In this document: positions 409-39,736 of the stretch, piece after piece
Numbering within the stretch: position 1 is the stretch's first letter
Layout of the letters: each line of letters begins with the position of its first letter
Notes under the pieces: model-generated
Databases searched by the model: none
The model's input: the letters and a program-made list of their open reading frames with translations, nothing else
What the model was told of the DNA's origin: nothing
Origin: Nanobdellota archaeon
GTDB taxonomy: Archaea > Nanobdellota > Nanobdellia > Pacearchaeales > GW2011-AR1
Length of the DNA: 42,262 nt
NCBI GenBank assembly: GCA_030647095.1
Contig: JAUSKH010000063.1
Coordinates: forward strand, 1 to 42,262
Direction: 5' to 3'
Made by a program: the position numbers and the translations under genes

Positions 409-2121
409 ATGGGAGAGATGTATTATTCTGAGTTTGTAGATGTTTATGATAAATTATTTGCAACTACAAAAAGACTTGAAAAAGAGGCAATTTTAGCTGA
501 ATTTATAAAGACATTAGCTAAAAAAGATGAAAGTGAGTGGATATATTTATTAAAAGGTAAAATTTTTCCTGATTATGATGAAAGAGAGTTTGGTATTTCA
601 GGTCAATTAACTTTGAAGGCACTCGCTTTTGCATTTGGAGTTCCTGAAAATAAAGTAACTGAGATGTATCGGAAAGTTGGAGATTGGGGGCAAATTGCTG
701 AGGAGTTAGCCGATAAGAAAAGGCAGACAACATTATTTTCTTCTAAATTAATTGTTAAGAAGGTTTTTGAAAATTTGAGAAAGGTTGTTAGTATAGAGGG
801 TAAAGGAACTGTTTCTAGGAAAATAGAATTGATTGCAGAGCTTTTGGGAAACGCTTCTGGAAGAGAGGCTAAATATATTGTTAGAACTTTATTACAGGAT
901 TTGAGAATTGGAGTAGCTGATGCTTTATTGAGAGATTCTATTACAGATGCCTTTTATCATGATGATAAGAAGGAGATGGTATCTCTTGTTGGTGAGGCTT
1001 ACGATTTAGCTAATGATTTTGCAGTTGTTTTTGAAGCTGCGCAGAAAGGCAAGAAGGAATTAGAGAAAATAAGCATAATACCTGGAAAGCCAATAAATGC
1101 TATGCTTGCGATTAAGGTTGAAGATATAGATGAAGCTTTTGAGGTTTGTGGCGTGCCTGCTGCTGTAGAAGATAAGTATGATGGTTTTAGAGTTTTGATA
1201 CATAAGAATAAGGATAAAATCTGGCTTTTTACAAGACGTTTAGAAAATGTAACAAAACAGTTTCCTGATGTTGTTGAGGCTGTGAAAAAATATGTAAAAG
1301 GAGAGAGTTTTATTTTGGATTCTGAAGTAGTGGGGTATGATTCTAAGACTAAAATTTACCGACCTTTTGAGGCAATCAGCCAGAGAATAAAAAGAAAATA
1401 TGATATTGAAAAGATTGCAGGACAGTTACCTGTTGAGGTAAATGTTTTTGATGTGCTTTATTATCAAGGGGAAAGTTTTTTGAAGAAAGAATTTAAAGAA
1501 AGAAGAAAATTATTAGAAAAAATCATTAAGAATGAAAAATGGAAACTTGTTTCTGCTAGGCAAATAATTACTTCAAGTAAAGAGGAAGCTATGAGGTTTT
1601 ATGAGAATGCTTTAAGCAGAGGGGAAGAAGGAATAATGGTTAAGAAGCTGGATGCTCCCTATCAGCAGGGTAGGCGTGTGGGTTATATGGTAAAGTTGAA
1701 GCCAACTGTTAATGATTTGGACTTGGTTGTTATTGGAGCTGAATATGGAAGTGGAAAAAGAGGTGGAATGTTAACTAGTTATATTTTAGGCTGTCGTACT
1801 GAAAAAGATTTTGTGGAGGTTGGAAAAGTTTCTTCTGGATTTAAGGAAAAAGAATCAGAGGGTGTAACTTATGACCAAATTACTGAATTATTGAAGCCTT
1901 TGATTATTGAGGAAAAAGGAAATGTTGTGAGGGTTTCTCCTAAGATGGTTGTTTCAGTTACTTATCAGAATATACAGAAAAGTCCATCATATAGTTCTGG
2001 ATATGCTTTGCGGTTCCCTAGAATAAGCCATTATAGGCCTGATAGAGGAATAAAAGATATAGCTACTTTGAAGGATATTGAAAAAGAATTTGTGAGGATG
2101 CAGAGGAAGGCGGAGAAGTAG
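409..2121 (+). CDS. lig: ATP-dependent DNA ligase (archaeal/eukaryotic type)
   Basis: 570 aa. Adenylation motif I is EDKYDGFR (KxDG). Other ligase motifs seen: ILDSEVVG, EGIMVKK and YMVKLKP. The C-terminal OB region ends in RFPR. Confidence 0.95.
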   Translation: MGEMYYSEFVDVYDKLFATTKRLEKEAILAEFIKTLAKKDESEWIYLLKGKIFPDYDEREFGISGQLTLKALAFAFGVPENKVTEMYRKVGDWGQIAEELADKKRQTTLFSSKLIVKKVFENLRKVVSIEGKGTVSRKIELIAELLGNASGREAKYIVRTLLQDLRIGVADALLRDSITDAFYHDDKKEMVSLVGEAYDLANDFAVVFEAAQKGKKELEKISIIPGKPINAMLAIKVEDIDEAFEVCGVPAAVEDKYDGFRVLIHKNKDKIWLFTRRLENVTKQFPDVVEAVKKYVKGESFILDSEVVGYDSKTKIYRPFEAISQRIKRKYDIEKIAGQLPVEVNVFDVLYYQGESFLKKEFKERRKLLEKIIKNEKWKLVSARQIITSSKEEAMRFYENALSRGEEGIMVKKLDAPYQQGRRVGYMVKLKPTVNDLDLVVIGAEYGSGKRGGMLTSYILGCRTEKDFVEVGKVSSGFKEKESEGVTYDQITELLKPLIIEEKGNVVRVSPKMVVSVTYQNIQKSPSYSSGYALRFPRISHYRPDRGIKDIATLKDIEKEFVRMQRKAEK

Positions 2122-2314
2122 ATAACTTTATATGTATTATATTTTATTATGCAGGATGATCAAGAAAAGGTTGGAAGATATTAAGCAGTTCATGAGCATT
2201 AAGCCATTTGATTTTGGAGAAGGAGTGAAAAACTAGTATGGAAGTAGACGAAATAGTTTATAGGTACAAGAGAGTTGCTAAAATTAAGGGGAAAATGAAG
2301 GAGGGAGTTATCCT

Positions 2315-2545
2315 TTATAATAAATCTAAGAGCTGTTCAAGTGTCACATCTGTTTGTCGCATAATGCTTTTTAGCGTTCCTTTTGCAAGTTCTTTATGAA
2401 GCGGTACAGGAACTGTTATTTTTCCTTTAATTGGATCTTGTTTAGTGAGAATTGCATGACTTCCATGAGTTCTTATATGATTAAAACCAATCTTTGAGAG
2501 CGCTTTAACAACATCTTTACCCGAGACTATGGGCAATTTTGGCAT
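2315..2545 (-). CDS. hicA: HicA-family mRNA interferase toxin
   Basis: 76 aa. PKLPIVSGKDVVKALSKIGFNHIRTHGSHAIL is a typical HicA/YcfA signature. The gene overlaps the upstream HicB-like gene. Confidence 0.8.
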   Translation of the reverse strand: MPKLPIVSGKDVVKALSKIGFNHIRTHGSHAILTKQDPIKGKITVPVPLHKELAKGTLKSIMRQTDVTLEQLLDLL

Positions 2546-5632: not shown

Positions 5633-6272
5633 TTCTGTTCATAAATCCCCCGTATGATTTTCCATTTATGACTAAGTGGGGTAGAGATGAAATGTTGTAA
5701 GTTCCTGTTAGATAATCAGTTATATTGTTTTTACTTGACATATCAAATGTAAATATTCTTACTTTTTCATTATGGACATTGTAAATAGTATCTAGCACAT
5801 AACCTTGCTGTTCGCTTAGTTGATAGTCGCCACGAGGGTCGTTTTTGTTATTTGTGTAGAAGAATAGGATTATATTCCAGTTGTAATCACAATGAGCTTT
5901 AGTTTCTTCTGTAATATTTAGTATTTTTATTTGTATTTTATTATACGTGTCTTTTTGTTCCATGACTTTTTCGTCATTCTTTCCCAGTCTTGTCTCTAGC
6001 CTAGAGAGTATTTCTCCTATTTCTACTTTTTCTTTCCATACATCTTCCCATTTGAGATCACAATAACTTACGTTTTGTTTATTGATATTTGCTGTTTTTA
6101 AAATGAATAAGTCAAAAAGACTTCCAATTACTTTTTGAGAGGTCTTTATTTCATCTAATTTTTTGTAAGCTAGATAGTCTCCAACCAGAATACCTGATAA
6201 AAAGAGCAAAGCTGCTAAAACCACAGCCATCATGAAAATATTGAGATTCACCTTTCTTTTTATAGATTCCAT
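5607..6272 (-). CDS. N-terminally membrane-anchored hypothetical protein
   Basis: One N-terminal TM helix. The C-terminal half has a thioredoxin-like feel (IILFFYTNN ... LPHLVINGKSYGG) but lacks a CxxC. It sits in an operon between GT2 and the GT-C transferase. Confidence 0.45.
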   Translation of the reverse strand: MESIKRKVNLNIFMMAVVLAALLFLSGILVGDYLAYKKLDEIKTSQKVIGSLFDLFILKTANINKQNVSYCDLKWEDVWKEKVEIGEILSRLETRLGKNDEKVMEQKDTYNKIQIKILNITEETKAHCDYNWNIILFFYTNNKNDPRGDYQLSEQQGYVLDTIYNVHNEKVRIFTFDMSSKNNITDYLTGTYNISSLPHLVINGKSYGGFMNRNEIEKALQ

Positions 6273-25636: not shown

Positions 25637-27139
25637 ATGGAAATAGATCCTCATAAAAAGGCAGAATTGGAAGATTTAGTTGCTCTACTGGAAAGCATAA
25701 GAGGAAGACATACAGAGTTGGTAACTGTTATGATTCCTGCTGGTTCAAATATTTTCCCTGTTGTAAGACAGCTTGAGGCAGAGAGGTCTACTGCAGAAAA
25801 TATAAAATCAAAGCAGACTAGGTCTGCTGTTATTGATTCTATTGATATGATTATTAGAGAATTAAAGAATTATAAACAGACGCCTCCAAATGGTCTTGCA
25901 CTTTTTGCTGGAAATATTTCTGATAAAGAAGGTATGCAGGACATTAAGATTTGGGCTATTGAACCTCCTAAGCCACTTAATGTTAGAATATACAGATGTG
26001 ATCAGGTTTTTGTTGTTGATCCTCTGAAAGAAATACTTGATGTTGAAGAGATTTATGGTTTGTTAGTTATTGATAGGCAGGGAGCAACAATAGGAGTTTT
26101 GGAAGGAAGGAGAATAAAAGTTTTACAGAAATTGACTTCCGGAGTTCCGGGGAAGGTAAGGGCTGGGGGACAGTGTCTTGCTCCAGATACTTTTGTTGAG
26201 ACGCGGGAAGGAAATAAAAAAATAAAAGATTTGAAAATTGGTGATAAGATTAAAGCCTTAGATATAGAAAAGCAAAAGATAATTTATACGAAGTGTATTA
26301 ATAAATGGAATAACAATAAAAATGAATGCTTTGAATTTACTACAAATAGTAATAAAACAATTATCTGTTCTGGAGATCATTCATTGTTTTTATATGATAA
26401 TTATAAGTTATTAGAAATACCGGCGAGTATGATATTAAAAGGAACTGTTTTAATTAATGATAATCAAGAATTTGAAGAGATAAATAGAATAAAAAAGATT
26501 AGTAAAGACATTCAGCTGGTTGATATAGAAACTGAGAATAAAAACTTTTTTGCTAATGGAGTATTGGTTCATAATTCATCTCAGAGATACCATAGAGTTA
26601 CAGAAGGGCTTGCTAAGGAGTTTTACAGGAGAGTGGCTGAAGAGATGAAAAGAATATTTTTTGACATGCCTAAGTTGAAGGGACTTTTAGTGGGAGGACC
26701 AATACCAACAAAAGAAGATTTTTTGAAAGAAGGGGATTTGGTTACTGTTTTGAAAGAAAAAGTTATTGCTATAAAGGATTTAGGTTATACTGATGAACAT
26801 GGTTTGGAGTTATTAGTTGAAGACTCATGGGAGGATATTGCACAACAGGAATTGATAAAAGAGAAGAATATTTTGAATAAATTTTTCCAGACTTTAGGAA
26901 AGGATTCAAAAATGACTGCTTACGGCTTAGAAAGAGTAAAACTTGCCTTACAGCGAGGGTCTGTTGGATTGCTTATTGTTTCTAAGGAACTTCCTAAAGA
27001 AGAGATAGCTGAATTGGAAAAGATGGCTGAGAACATTGGGGCAGAAATGGTTGTTGTTTCTAGTGATCATCAAGATGGCGAGCAATTCTTTAATTTGACT
27101 AAAGGTGTTGGTGCTGTTTTGAGATTCGCGATGGAATAA
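25637..27139 (+). CDS. prf1: Peptide chain release factor aRF1, containing a mini-intein
   Basis: NIKS motif (AENIKSKQ). The GGQ motif at residues 177-179 is followed by the intein. The extein resumes SSQRYHRVTEG. The C-terminal domain is typical of aRF1/eRF1. Confidence 0.9.
   Translation: MEIDPHKKAELEDLVALLESIRGRHTELVTVMIPAGSNIFPVVRQLEAERSTAENIKSKQTRSAVIDSIDMIIRELKNYKQTPPNGLALFAGNISDKEGMQDIKIWAIEPPKPLNVRIYRCDQVFVVDPLKEILDVEEIYGLLVIDRQGATIGVLEGRRIKVLQKLTSGVPGKVRAGGQCLAPDTFVETREGNKKIKDLKIGDKIKALDIEKQKIIYTKCINKWNNNKNECFEFTTNSNKTIICSGDHSLFLYDNYKLLEIPASMILKGTVLINDNQEFEEINRIKKISKDIQLVDIETENKNFFANGVLVHNSSQRYHRVTEGLAKEFYRRVAEEMKRIFFDMPKLKGLLVGGPIPTKEDFLKEGDLVTVLKEKVIAIKDLGYTDEHGLELLVEDSWEDIAQQELIKEKNILNKFFQTLGKDSKMTAYGLERVKLALQRGSVGLLIVSKELPKEEIAELEKMAENIGAEMVVVSSDHQDGEQFFNLTKGVGAVLRFAME
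26174..26575 (+). mobile_element. 134-aa mini-intein (no homing-endonuclease domain) inserted after GGQ of aRF1
   Basis: It starts with Cys (CLAPDTFVETREG, block A). Block B is like CSGDHSLF. The C-terminus is VDIETENKNFFANGVLVHN, followed by the +1 Ser. Removing it restores GGQ-S. Confidence 0.85.
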
Positions 27140-36682: not shown

Positions 36683-37110
36683 TATTAAAAAAGAAAAATT
36701 AAAATAATAAATCTTTGTTAGATTATCTTCTTTTCTTTTTCTTAGCTGCCTTTTTTTTCTTTGCCATTGTGATTTCACTCCTTTTATCTTGTTATACTTA
36801 GAACATTTTTGTTTATAAATTTATCTAAAACTTTATTTTAAATAAAATTATTTTCATTTTAGATAAATTGCAGATTAATTTTTATCGAAGGCAATTTATT
36901 TTTAAGAATAATTCATAAATTTTATAATATCCTTATACTTTTATTTTCTTAAGATTTGATGATTATTCGAATTATTTTTGGTTTTTTGCTACAAAAAATA
37001 GCTGCTATAAATTTATGAGGCGCGAAGCGCCGAATGCGCAAGGTTGTTTTGAGCGCGTAAATCAAACGTTTGAGATGTTTATATTTAATATTATTAGTAT
37101 GAGAGCAAGA

Positions 37111-37118
37111 TTTATATA
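37111..37118 (+). promoter_or_regulatory. Archaeal TATA box for the tRNA gene
   Basis: TTTATATA ends 23 nt upstream of tRNA position 1 (37142), preceded by purine-rich AGCAAGA. Confidence 0.5.
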
Positions 37119-37176
37119 ACGTGTTTATCTGAATTTTTCAAGTCCCGGTAGCTCAGTTGGTAGAGCACATGGCTGT

Positions 37177-37533
37177 AGTACGGAGTTTAAACGTGAAGAA
37201 AGAACACGAACTTACAAAGACCGACGTAGATATAATATAGATGCAGTAACTAAACGTAGGAAAAAAATCCGCTTAAAGGCGATTGCATATTCGGGCGGGA
37301 AATGTACTAAGTGTGGATACTGCAAATATCCTGAAGTCTTGGAGTTCCATCACAAAGATCCTTCGCAGAAGGATTTTAATGTCTCAAGTAAGGGGCATTG
37401 TAGGAGCTGGGAAAGAGTTCGTAATGAGATAGAGAAATGTGATTTGCTATGCGCAAATTGTCATAGAGAACTTCACGTTGAACTAAATAAAGTAGCAGCT
37501 TCCAAAGGAAACTTTGGAATGAAAAGCGAGTAA
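37177..37533 (+). CDS. Intron-encoded HNH homing endonuclease (no canonical start codon; track ORF starts at TTG 37339)
   Basis: The frame is open from 37120 to the TAA at 37531-33. KAIAYSGGKCTKCGYCKYPEVLEFHHKDPSQKDF...CDLLCANCHRELH is a complete HNH/zinc-finger motif. The first CxxC lies upstream of the only ATG/GTG/TTG candidate. Confidence 0.55.
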   Translation, partial: STEFKREERTRTYKDRRRYNIDAVTKRRKKIRLKAIAYSGGKCTKCGYCKYPEVLEFHHKDPSQKDFNVSSKGHCRSWERVRNEIEKCDLLCANCHRELHVELNKVAASKGNFGMKSE

Positions 37534-37681
37534 ATTCAGGGAAACCCTACAATTAAGTTGAGGGCAATCCTGAGCCAAGCCCGAAAGGGAAGGTGCAGAG
37601 ACTAGACACTCGCCTCCTAAGACTTAGCAATAAGTTATGGAGATGGTATAGTCCTACCCTCCAAGAGATTGGAAAAGGTCG
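37177..37681 (+). mobile_element. Group I intron inserted between anticodon positions 35 and 36
   Basis: The 5' exon ends in U and the intron ends in G. P1-P9 pairings and P/Q/R/S-like conserved elements are readable; coordinates are given in the findings. GNRA loops GAAA, GAAA, GCAA and GAGA are present. Confidence 0.8.
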
Positions 37682-37719
37682 TAACCATGGGGTCAGAGGT
37701 TCGAGTCCTCTCCGGGACG

Positions 37720-37730
37720 TTTTATTTTTT
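37720..37730 (+). terminator. Oligo-T archaeal terminator after the tRNA
   Basis: TTTTATTTTTT lies directly after the discriminator base. Confidence 0.5.
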
Positions 37731-37767
37731 GAGAAACATTTTTAAGCATAAAAAATATACTGTATAG

Positions 37768-38112
37768 ATGATAATCTATAAGGGATACTATCATTTTAGG
37801 AAAGGAAATGGTTCTATAGCTGCCTGTTCTTGTGAGGGTGTTAATGGTTATCGTAATGCCAATTTAATGATTGTTTTTATGCAACCTAGGAAATATTATA
37901 TAGGTGTTAATAATAAAGATTCTCTTGAAGAGCAAGTAAAATCAGTTTTACATGAATTTGCACATATTGGATTGGAACATCCCTTTATTAAACTAGATTC
38001 AGAAACTCCTGAGATGAATGCAAGAGCTGAAGACGAAGCGATTAGATTCTATAATAAAAATTCTCCTTTAGTTGGTAGAATAAGAGAAATATTAGTAGAT
38101 AAAAAATGTTAA
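37768..38112 (+). CDS. Small HExxH metallopeptidase-like protein
   Basis: LHEFAHIGLEH contains HExxH followed by a further His/Glu, in an ImmA/IrrE- or DUF955-like arrangement. No other evidence. Confidence 0.4.
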   Translation: MIIYKGYYHFRKGNGSIAACSCEGVNGYRNANLMIVFMQPRKYYIGVNNKDSLEEQVKSVLHEFAHIGLEHPFIKLDSETPEMNARAEDEAIRFYNKNSPLVGRIREILVDKKC

Positions 38113-38635: not shown

Positions 38636-39736
38636 ATGATAAAGGAAAAGAAAACAGTATTATTGGGTATGTCTGGAGGTGTAGATTCAAGTGTAGCAGC
38701 GCTTATTTTAAAAAAAGAAGGTTATAGAGTTATAGGCGCTTTTATGAAGAATTTTTCTGATACAAAGAATAAACTTACAGGAGAGTGTGCTTGGCAGGAA
38801 GAGAAAGCGATGGCACAGAAAATCGCTGCTATGCTTGAAATTCCTTTGATTATAATAGATTCTGAGGAAGAGTATAAGAAAGAGGTTGTTGACCCTATGT
38901 TTAAAGCTTATGCTAAAGGATTTACACCTAATCCTGATGTTTTATGCAATAAATTAATAAAATTTCCTGTTCTTTGGAAGAAAGCTCAAGAGTTGGGAGT
39001 TGATTATATTGCAACAGGGCATTACGTTAGGATTAGAAAGAGTTCTAAGGGATATGAAATGTTAAGAGGCAAAGATGATTATAAGGATCAATCTTATTTC
39101 TTGTATGAGTTGAATGAAAAAGATTTGGAGCATACACTTTTTCTTATGGGAGAGTATACTAAAGAGGAAGTAAGAAAGATTGCTAAAAAGAATGGATTTT
39201 ACAATTGGGATAAGAAAGGAACTAGTGGAGTTTGTTTTATCGGGAAGATAGACATGAAACATTTTCTTAAGCAGAGGATAAAAGAAAAAAAAGGCAATGT
39301 TGTTAATATGGAAGGGGAAGTTGTAGGGACACATCCAGGAAGTATGTTCTTTACAATCGGAGAAAGAGTTGGGAGTAAATATGGAATAGAAATAGATAGG
39401 AAAATTAGAAATATGACTGGGAAGAAATTGTATATAGCTGATAAAAGAAAAGGAAATGTGTTGGTTGTCGCTCCTTCTGGACATAAGGCTTTGAAAAGAA
39501 ATAAGGTTTTTATCAGGGAATTACATCTAATAAATAAGAAAGAGAAAATTAATGGGAAGGGTTTAAGAGCAAGAATTAGGCATTTAGGGAGTTTGAATAA
39601 AGGCATTTTAAAGAAAAATAAAGGAAGATGGATATTTACATTTGCTAAGCCTATAGAAGGAATTGCAGAAGGTCAGTCAATAGTCTTTTACAAAGGCGAA
39701 AAGGTTATTGGTGGGGGTGAGATGCGGGTGAAATAG
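38636..39736 (+). CDS. mnmA: tRNA-specific 2-thiouridylase MnmA
   Basis: PP-loop GMSGGVDSSVAA, catalytic Cys regions (NPDVLCN, GVCFIG) and a length of about 366 aa. Confidence 0.9.
   Translation: MIKEKKTVLLGMSGGVDSSVAALILKKEGYRVIGAFMKNFSDTKNKLTGECAWQEEKAMAQKIAAMLEIPLIIIDSEEEYKKEVVDPMFKAYAKGFTPNPDVLCNKLIKFPVLWKKAQELGVDYIATGHYVRIRKSSKGYEMLRGKDDYKDQSYFLYELNEKDLEHTLFLMGEYTKEEVRKIAKKNGFYNWDKKGTSGVCFIGKIDMKHFLKQRIKEKKGNVVNMEGEVVGTHPGSMFFTIGERVGSKYGIEIDRKIRNMTGKKLYIADKRKGNVLVVAPSGHKALKRNKVFIRELHLINKKEKINGKGLRARIRHLGSLNKGILKKNKGRWIFTFAKPIEGIAEGQSIVFYKGEKVIGGGEMRVK

Follow-up and report, generated by a model that had tools for sequence, protein, structure and literature searches.

As of 2014, no group I intron was known in archaea (Hausner, Hafez and Edgell 2014, PMC3984707). 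A later survey recorded 39 archaeal group I introns, which belong to subtypes IA3 and IB4 and without exception interrupt rRNA genes; two IC3 hits were put aside there, since they might be contamination (Nawrocki, Jones and Eddy 2018, PMC6125680). Among tRNA introns, 21 bacterial classes have been distinguished, including one named Asn.4Ug, and one hit in a Pacearchaeota metagenome-assembled genome (MAG) was dismissed as mis-binned (Williams 2020, bioRxiv 10.1101/2020.01.27.920355). For group I introns in archaeal tRNA genes we found no report in the full-text literature, most subscription journals being outside its coverage. Here we describe a 42,262-nt stretch of archaeal DNA (the window, meaning the whole stretch analysed) whose sole tRNA gene, a tRNA-Asn(GUU), is split in its anticodon loop by such an intron. 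In our reading, held with high confidence, the tRNA-Asn(GUU) gene is functional and belongs to a DPANN archaeon; it has a TATA-box promoter and, between U35 and U36, an IC3 group I intron of probable bacterial origin. A preliminary description of this DNA had treated any group I intron in an archaeon as a rarity and anticodon-loop group I introns as classically bacterial or organellar. On the first count, such introns are already known in archaeal rRNA genes, and the archaeal tRNA host is the new element; on the second, the same site class (Asn.4Ug) has indeed been described in bacteria, whereas the host here is archaeal.

The tRNA gene becomes visible when an intron is allowed for. Run without introns, ARAGORN found no tRNA across the whole window; run with introns, it called tRNA-Asn(gtt) at 37142-37719, with a 505-nt intron (37177-37681) between nucleotides 35 and 36. 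Removal of 37177-37681 gives a 73-mer with a clean cloverleaf, in which the joined exons form the mature anticodon loop CUGUUAA. The spliced molecule has a G1-C72 pair and G73 as the discriminator, and no CCA is encoded. The preliminary description had proposed this split at 35/36, a cloverleaf that appears only once the insert is removed, and the G1-C72 pair and G73 discriminator of tRNA-Asn; ARAGORN agrees on each point and scores the gene as tRNA-Asn. Related loci were collected in two scans, one of genomes for the endonuclease gene discussed below (37 loci) and one of metagenomes for a 25-mer of the intron core (at least 120 loci). In 54 distinct spliced tRNAs of the archaeal type, 99.7% of the stem positions are paired, and 14 of the 21 pairs show compensatory changes. 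The exons are thus under selection, and precise joining of nucleotides 35 and 36 must therefore occur in vivo.

The intervening sequence has the core of a group I ribozyme. When 37000-37850 was searched, the Rfam model RF00028 (Intron_gpI) matched 37435-37675 on the forward strand with 77.0 bits (E=1e-19, model positions 1-253), well above the gathering score of 50 bits and as the preliminary description had expected; relatives of the intron score 71-85 bits. A scan of all 42 kb at the gathering threshold returned no Rfam match and missed the intron, presumably through a speed-filter artefact. Since both ARAGORN in default mode and the whole-window Rfam scan were blank, routine annotation would miss the tRNA as well as the intron. 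Several features place the intron with the IC3 subtype: GNRA loops on P2 and P9, no P5abc, and the motifs AAAUUCAGGGAAA (J3/4-P4), AAUCCUGAGCCAAG (P6) and GCAGAGACUA (P7), which are shared with the published seed alignment of tRNA introns and conserved among the relatives aligned below. All of the helices listed in the preliminary description are complementary where it had placed them (Table 1), with one change of name: the hairpin CCC-GAAA-GGG, called P6 there, is better termed P6a, P6 itself being the GCC/GGU helix. Within P8, CCUAAG (37616-21) and UAUGG (37636-40) can be read as the canonical 11-nt receptor for a GAAA tetraloop, and by analogy the GAAA loop of P2 (L2) probably docks there. 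Docking of L2 into P8 is known for IC3 introns such as that of Azoarcus.

The fold was evaluated in an alignment (A2) of 76 distinct homologous cores that runs from the guide sequence to exon 2, with the pair structure derived from the window. Standard pairs occupy 96.0% of the alignment cells, a share that falls to 28-48% if the 3' partners are shifted along the alignment by 1-3 columns; both sides have changed in 27 of the 54 pairs, and none of 500 shuffles reached the observed covariation score. The helices that covary are P2, P5, P6a, P8, P8a and P9. The guide UAGCAGC, complementary to the ligated exons G31-CUGU/UA (the slash marks the splice junction) and so spanning P1 and P10, is invariant in 76/76 cores. 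Among the 100 loci in which the tRNA was called directly, exon CUGU and guide GCAG are present in every one, as is the junction CTGT/...G/TAA with the terminal omega-G. That the core, the guide, the U at position -1 (U-1) and omega-G are conserved or covary is to be expected only under selection for RNA catalysis. The complete group I core, the U-G wobble of P1 at the cleavage site and the terminal G, all claimed in the preliminary description, are therefore upheld by the comparison.

Table 1. Features of the split tRNA-Asn locus (positions in the window)
Feature	Position	Strand	Remarks
TATA box TTTATATA	37111..37118	+	24-31 nt 5' of tRNA position 1; archaeal promoter motif
tRNA-Asn(GUU) exon 1, nucleotides 1-35	37142..37176	+	Ends CAUGG-CUGU; U35 is position -1 at the 5' splice site; ARAGORN
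P1 5' strand GGCUGU (tRNA nucleotides 30-35)	37171..37176	+	Pairs with GCAGCU 37495-37500; U37176-G37495 at cleavage site
Group I intron, 505 nt, IC3-like	37177..37681	+	RF00028; covariation; omega-G at 37681
Putative HNH-like homing-endonuclease reading frame	37193..37533	+	In P1 loop; frameshifted; 110 remaining codons open to TAA 37531-33
Internal guide sequence UA-GCAGCU (UAGCAGCU)	37493..37500	+	UA with exon 2 U36-A37, P10; GCAGCU with exon 1, P1
P2 hairpin, GAAA loop	37500..37519	+	8/8 pairs changed on both sides; 96.9% of cells paired
P3	37526-30 with 37609-13	+	100% paired; encloses P4, P5, P6, P6a and P7 5' strand
P4	37536-41 with 37568-73	+	100% paired, invariant
P5	37545-48 with 37561-64	+	Covaries
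P6 (GCC/GGU)	37574-76 with 37592-94	+	100% paired, invariant
P6a (CCC-GAAA-GGG)	37580-82 with 37587-89	+	Covaries
P7 5' strand	G37598, bulged A37599, 37600-04	+	Pairs with UAGUCC 37649-54
P8	37614-17 with 37639-42	+	99.7% paired; 2 covarying pairs
P8a, GCAA loop	37621-26 with 37631-36	+	5 covarying pairs
P7 3' strand UAGUCC	37649..37654	+	Guanosine-binding helix; 6/6 pairs invariant, 100% paired in 76 cores
P9.0	37656-58 with 37677-79	+	P9.0 and P9 jointly: 6/9 pairs covary, 96.5% of cells paired
P9, GAGA loop	37659-64 with 37669-74	+	Pair statistics counted jointly with P9.0
Omega-G	37681	+	Last intron nucleotide
tRNA-Asn exon 2, nucleotides 36-73	37682..37719	+	Discriminator G73 at 37719; no encoded CCA; ARAGORN
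Oligo-T run TTTTATTTTTT	37720..37730	+	Read from sequence; directly 3' of discriminator

We suggest the following course for expression of the gene. The TATA-box promoter would drive transcription of the split tRNA-Asn; the guide UAGCAGCU would pair with G30-U35 of exon 1 to give P1, with its U-G wobble at the cleavage site, and with U36-A37 of exon 2 to give P10. The P3-P9 core would fold, with the GAAA loop of P2 probably docked in the 11-nt receptor of P8. An external guanosine held in P7 would attack after U37176, omega-G37681 would next occupy the same P7 site, and ligation of the exons would yield the anticodon loop CUGUUAA. A different route, in which the archaeal splicing endonuclease and an RNA ligase remove the insert and the group I-like core is a relic, has to be considered, as protein-spliced introns do occur in this group: an orthologous tRNA-Asn (locus L016) is interrupted at 37/38 by a bulge-helix-bulge-like intron of 24 nt, and a tRNA-Ile (locus L004) has an intron of 89 nt. 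A takeover of this kind has been hypothesised by Tocchini-Valentini et al., in the form in which PMC6125680 cites that work. The junction described here, however, lies at 35/36 and not at 37/38, and the ribozyme core, guide, U-1 and omega-G are all conserved or covarying. A bulge-helix-bulge motif was sought at the exon-intron junctions of 100 loci and rejected; it would have 3 of the 4 central pairs and mostly 0-2 flanking pairs, and would break the anticodon stem. We consider protein splicing of the window intron very improbable and retain splicing by the ribozyme. The tRNA-Ile(gat) gene of L004 (7249-7413, 89-nt intron) lies on a Woesearchaeota contig that also has a tRNA-Asn group I intron; the tRNA-Ile intron is probably protein-spliced, which would place both intron types in one genome.

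The host is a DPANN archaeon of the Pacearchaeota/Woesearchaeota type, and the archaeal genome claimed in the preliminary description is borne out by the gene content of the window, the promoter and the tRNA itself. The window (GC about 31%) encodes an ATP-dependent DNA ligase, MCM, aRF1, an eIF2-beta homologue, a Pno1-like KH protein and an RPA-like OB protein. Proteins of the window also adjoin the tRNA in its relatives: among the 163 loci compared, to which all neighbour counts refer, KH was found at 69, eIF2-beta at 37, MCM at 11, MnmA at 18 and nitroreductase at 40. These recurring neighbours flank the tRNA on both sides, with KH upstream and MnmA and nitroreductase downstream, and at least 60 independent contigs with archaeal neighbours have the same intron at the same site beside the same KH gene. 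Close homologues of the endonuclease are carried by three long contigs: one of 857 kb (JBAZWF010000001.1 of GCA_041660485.1, from a MAG named Candidatus Pacearchaeota), one of 272 kb (assembly GCA_040961665.1) and one of 192 kb (from a MAG named Candidatus Woesearchaeota). In all three a tRNA-Asn(gtt) with an intron of about 500 nt at the same site lies directly 3' of the KH gene and near eIF1A; aRF1 or eIF2-beta is also near the tRNA in some of them.

The tRNA genes themselves fall into two types. G1-C72 without an encoded CCA, as in the window, characterises 73 of the 100 directly called relatives, and 60 of these 73 have archaeal neighbours. U1-A72 is found in 26 of the 100, with an encoded CCA in 19 of the 26 and archaeal neighbours in none. 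As dnaX and the gene for phosphoenolpyruvate carboxylase adjoin one U1-A72 copy, we take the U1-A72 set to represent true bacteria. The box TTTAWAWA, at -32 to -24, is common to 56 distinct archaeal-type upstream regions and was not found in 20 bacterial-type upstream regions. On the 3' side, TTTT is the commonest trailer among related loci, and the oligo-T run that follows the discriminator in the window is likely to be an archaeal transcription terminator.

These data bear on the possibility that the tRNA and its intron are bacterial DNA, mis-binned or chimerically joined to an archaeal contig. The intron is of a typically bacterial type, a bacterial-type MnmA gene lies 0.9 kb downstream, and others have treated similar finds in this way, both the single Pacearchaeota case (Williams 2020, 10.1101/2020.01.27.920355) and the two IC3 hits that were set aside as possible contamination (Nawrocki 2018, PMC6125680). 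Against this, archaeal genes lie upstream of the tRNA within the 42-kb window, the KH, MnmA and nitroreductase genes recur beside it as counted above, the same arrangement is found on the 192- and 857-kb contigs from MAGs named as DPANN, and the G1-C72 pair, lack of CCA and TATA box here differ from the U1-A72 pair, frequent CCA and lack of a TATA box in the bacterial copies. The recurring neighbours, the type of tRNA, the TATA box and the oligo-T run therefore exclude mis-binning or a chimeric join for practical purposes, and we rate it as exceedingly improbable. The MnmA gene (38636-39736; tRNA 2-thiouridylase, PF03054) recurs in 18 related loci, and it is therefore a resident gene of the archaeal lineage and not contamination.

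A protein-coding insert, overlooked in the preliminary description, takes up the first 318 nt of the intron and separates the two strands of P1. Frame 1 is open from intron nucleotide 1 to the TAA at 37531-33 in J3/4, and its translation has the motif CxxC...HH...N...CxxCH. The 13 final codons (KVAASKGNFGMKSE) coincide with the guide, P2 and P3, and homologues encoded outside introns align only to about residue 96-103. Sequence searches gave 768 homologues, the best 120 of which are 64-84% identical, and several are named as Candidatus Pacearchaeota proteins. Most of the intact homologues retrieved start M(K)KETRTY.DRR.Y. At the corresponding position the window has GGAG (37182-85), a 7-nt spacer and GTG (37193). 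We rejected this GTG as an in-frame start, as it is one base out of frame and meets a stop after 15 codons. Comparison with the L005 and L119 alignment and with the start of the L004 intron locates a 1-nt deletion near 37203, at codon 4, within GAAAGA-ACACGAAC; past the deletion the reading frame has no internal stops and shares about 80% identity with intact homologues. An AlphaFold2 model of the protein has a pLDDT of 81, and a profile search against the PDB sequences found no match. Because the endonuclease gene is frameshifted, the mobility of the window copy is doubtful: of the self-splicing mobile intron proposed in the preliminary description, it is the mobility that is called into question, and by now the intron probably resides at this site as a splicing element and has lost the ability to home.

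The same frameshift could be taken as a sign of decay, the whole gene then being a dead tRNA pseudogene disrupted by a degenerating intron, with Asn codons read by the product of another gene. Such a pseudogene would not be expected to show purifying selection with compensatory changes in both the exons (54 distinct sequences) and the core (76), a conserved promoter motif and a locus position kept across many genomes. We find it highly unlikely and continue to regard the tRNA gene as functional.

The intron belongs to a family that is specific for tRNA-Asn and occurs in bacteria and in this archaeal lineage. All of the core-pattern matches inside called tRNAs (125/125) are in tRNA-Asn with the junction CUGU/...G/UAA. 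ARAGORN placed 25 of the introns in tRNA-Thr, tRNA-His or tRNA-Tyr (L043, L047, L053, L068, L088, L096, L113 and others); these hosts were rejected, as re-parsing showed the boundary to be 2 nt off and the tRNA to be tRNA-Asn. In the 100 directly called tRNA-Asn loci the intron measures 189-337 nt without an open reading frame (ORF) and 423-574 nt with one. The endonuclease gene is found in varied positions. At the archaeal-type loci it lies inside the intron in 37 cases and no such gene is nearby in 28; a further nine have an ORF-less intron of 205-227 nt and the endonuclease gene 55-70 nt downstream of the tRNA (L015, L017, L018, L046, L070, L091, L106, L154 and L157). The gene also lies downstream of a tRNA-Asn with no intron (L019 and L020), and in L016 it stands free beside the tRNA-Asn with the 24-nt bulge-helix-bulge-like intron at 37/38. 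Judged from these sequences, the free-standing, adjacent and intron-borne arrangements look like a stepwise series that leads to an endonuclease gene within the intron.

Neighbour joining of the 76 cores places the 57 introns with archaeal hosts in one clade and leaves the 19 with bacterial hosts outside it, a pattern that requires one host switch. The window core shares 91% identity with the archaeal introns closest to it, compared to 80% with the closest intron from a bacterial host. Some further loci of this kind are worth recording. A bacterial-type metagenome contig (L111) has two inverted copies of the split tRNA-Asn gene, at 1996-2362 (+) and 5691-6057 (-), and the intron measures 291 nt in both. 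One contig with a viral classification (L163, IMG/VR UViG_3300035537_000177) has at 823-1464 a bacterial-type tRNA-Asn with an encoded CCA and a 566-nt intron that includes the endonuclease gene; such a contig could be a vehicle for spread of the intron. Proteins more distantly related to the endonuclease (38-50% identity) are encoded near other bacterial tRNA genes with introns: L030 and L035 (tRNA-Gln ctg), L032 (tRNA-Leu taa) and L029 (tRNA-Cys gca). In L032 the match runs antisense to a gene for tRNA-Leu(UAA) that contains an intron of 625 nt.

Of course, some observations weigh against our reading. P1 has only 4-6 bp and closes a loop of 318 nt; P4, P6 and P7 are invariant in the 76 cores, which makes them neutral, with no covariation support of their own, such invariance being as expected of a catalytic centre; and guanosine-dependent self-splicing of the window intron is something that we infer from sequence. 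The protein in the P1 loop scores 17.6 bits against Pfam HNH (PF01844), below the cut-off of 21.4, and the top 16 Foldseek matches to its model, although all are HNH nucleases, are non-significant (E above 0.4); its assignment as an HNH-like (His-Me finger) enzyme is plausible but weak. Its frameshift would be either a very recent lesion or an assembly error. Because retrieval of the loci relied on a protein pattern and on exact matches to a 25-mer of the core, they are biased to close relatives, and the tree, which suggests a single transfer from bacteria to archaea, is provisional and shares this bias.

The length of the P1 loop raises a further question, namely whether the chemistry is that of a group I intron while a host or intron-encoded maturase or chaperone is needed in vivo, the ribozyme not being autonomous. 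P1 must form across the 318 nt, and many group I introns do require protein help in vivo (Hausner 2014, PMC3984707). The same core is nevertheless retained in the 56 ORF-less tRNA-Asn introns of 189-337 nt, and in the window the tRNA and core are intact despite the endonuclease frameshift. Small IC3 tRNA introns, such as those of Azoarcus and Anabaena, self-splice efficiently. A requirement for protein help thus seems unlikely to us, and we favour an intron that splices by itself.

The window has a second intervening element of a different kind. The aRF1 gene (25637-27139) contains a 134-residue mini-intein at about 26174-26575 (Cys1 ... His-Asn, then Ser), immediately after the catalytic GGQ motif (RAGGQ/CLAPD...LVHN/SSQRY, with slashes at the intein boundaries). 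Without the intein, aRF1 has 366 amino acids; in the related contig L002 it has 365 and no intein domain match.

What the locus adds is an IC3 intron of bacterial type that resides in archaeal tRNA genes, behind archaeal promoters, and is kept under selection. Within the literature covered, we could find no earlier solid case of a group I intron in an archaeal tRNA gene; the mechanism and the site class are known, and as far as we can see the archaeal tRNA host, the prevalence in this DPANN lineage and the distribution across two domains are undescribed. It is plausible that Asn decoding depends on ribozyme splicing. More tentatively, and with somewhat less than even confidence, we propose that a DPANN lineage reads all of its Asn codons by means of a bacterial-derived ribozyme that crossed between domains once and has been kept at one fixed locus, where it coexists with the archaeal protein machinery for introns, with stages of intron assembly preserved. 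There are practical consequences as well. Standard archaeal annotation would list tRNA-Asn as missing, and inferences about genome completeness and codon usage may be distorted; that a whole-window Rfam scan misses an intron 27 bits above the threshold matters for automated annotation. The family provides a clear-cut case of a homing intron common to bacteria and archaea, and its loci offer a natural series for how endonuclease genes join introns. With ribozyme-spliced and protein-spliced introns in one tRNA gene family, replacement of group I introns by bulge-helix-bulge introns becomes directly testable.

Compared to known systems, the window intron interrupts the anticodon loop of a tRNA gene in an archaeon, as archaeal bulge-helix-bulge introns do; those introns, however, are short, usually lie at 37/38, are defined by the bulge-helix-bulge motif and are removed by a protein endonuclease, whereas this one lies at 35/36, is a full ribozyme and has no such motif. 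The small IC3 introns of cyanobacterial and plastid tRNA-Leu(UAA) and of Azoarcus tRNA-Ile(CAU) resemble it in their P2 and P9 GNRA loops, lack of P5abc, location in the anticodon loop and exon-guide pairing, but they are inserted at 34/35 (Leu) and 36/37 (Ile), are normally ORF-less and are bacterial or organellar. The window stretch GGGCAAUCCUGAGCCAA is identical to the conserved segment of trnL introns. The same motif can be seen in the Williams seed alignment.

The archaeal rRNA group I introns (PMC6125680) also occur in DPANN and other archaea, and many of them have homing-endonuclease genes; all are in rRNA genes and of subtypes IA3 or IB4, with none in a tRNA and none accepted as IC3. 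Collaborative homing and free-standing endonucleases (PMC3984707) offer a parallel to the related loci, where the gene lies beside an intron-less tRNA, beside an ORF-less intron or inside the intron, with the difference that published cases come from phages and bacteria and have protein-coding targets, and that the endonuclease here is a putative one. The closest relative is Asn.4Ug (Williams 2020; seed Pam37.Asn.4Ug). Like the window intron, it interrupts tRNA-Asn GUU after the fourth nucleotide of the anticodon loop (35/36), with U-1 and omega-G, and has the IC3-like core motifs AAUCCUGAGCCAAG and GGUGCAGAGACUAGA; the window's own family is likewise found in bacterial tRNA-Asn. The window differs from Asn.4Ug in its archaeal host and neighbours, G1-C72 pair, lack of CCA and TATA box, and the archaeal clade is without the P7.1/P7.2 insertion that is present in Pam37 and L023.

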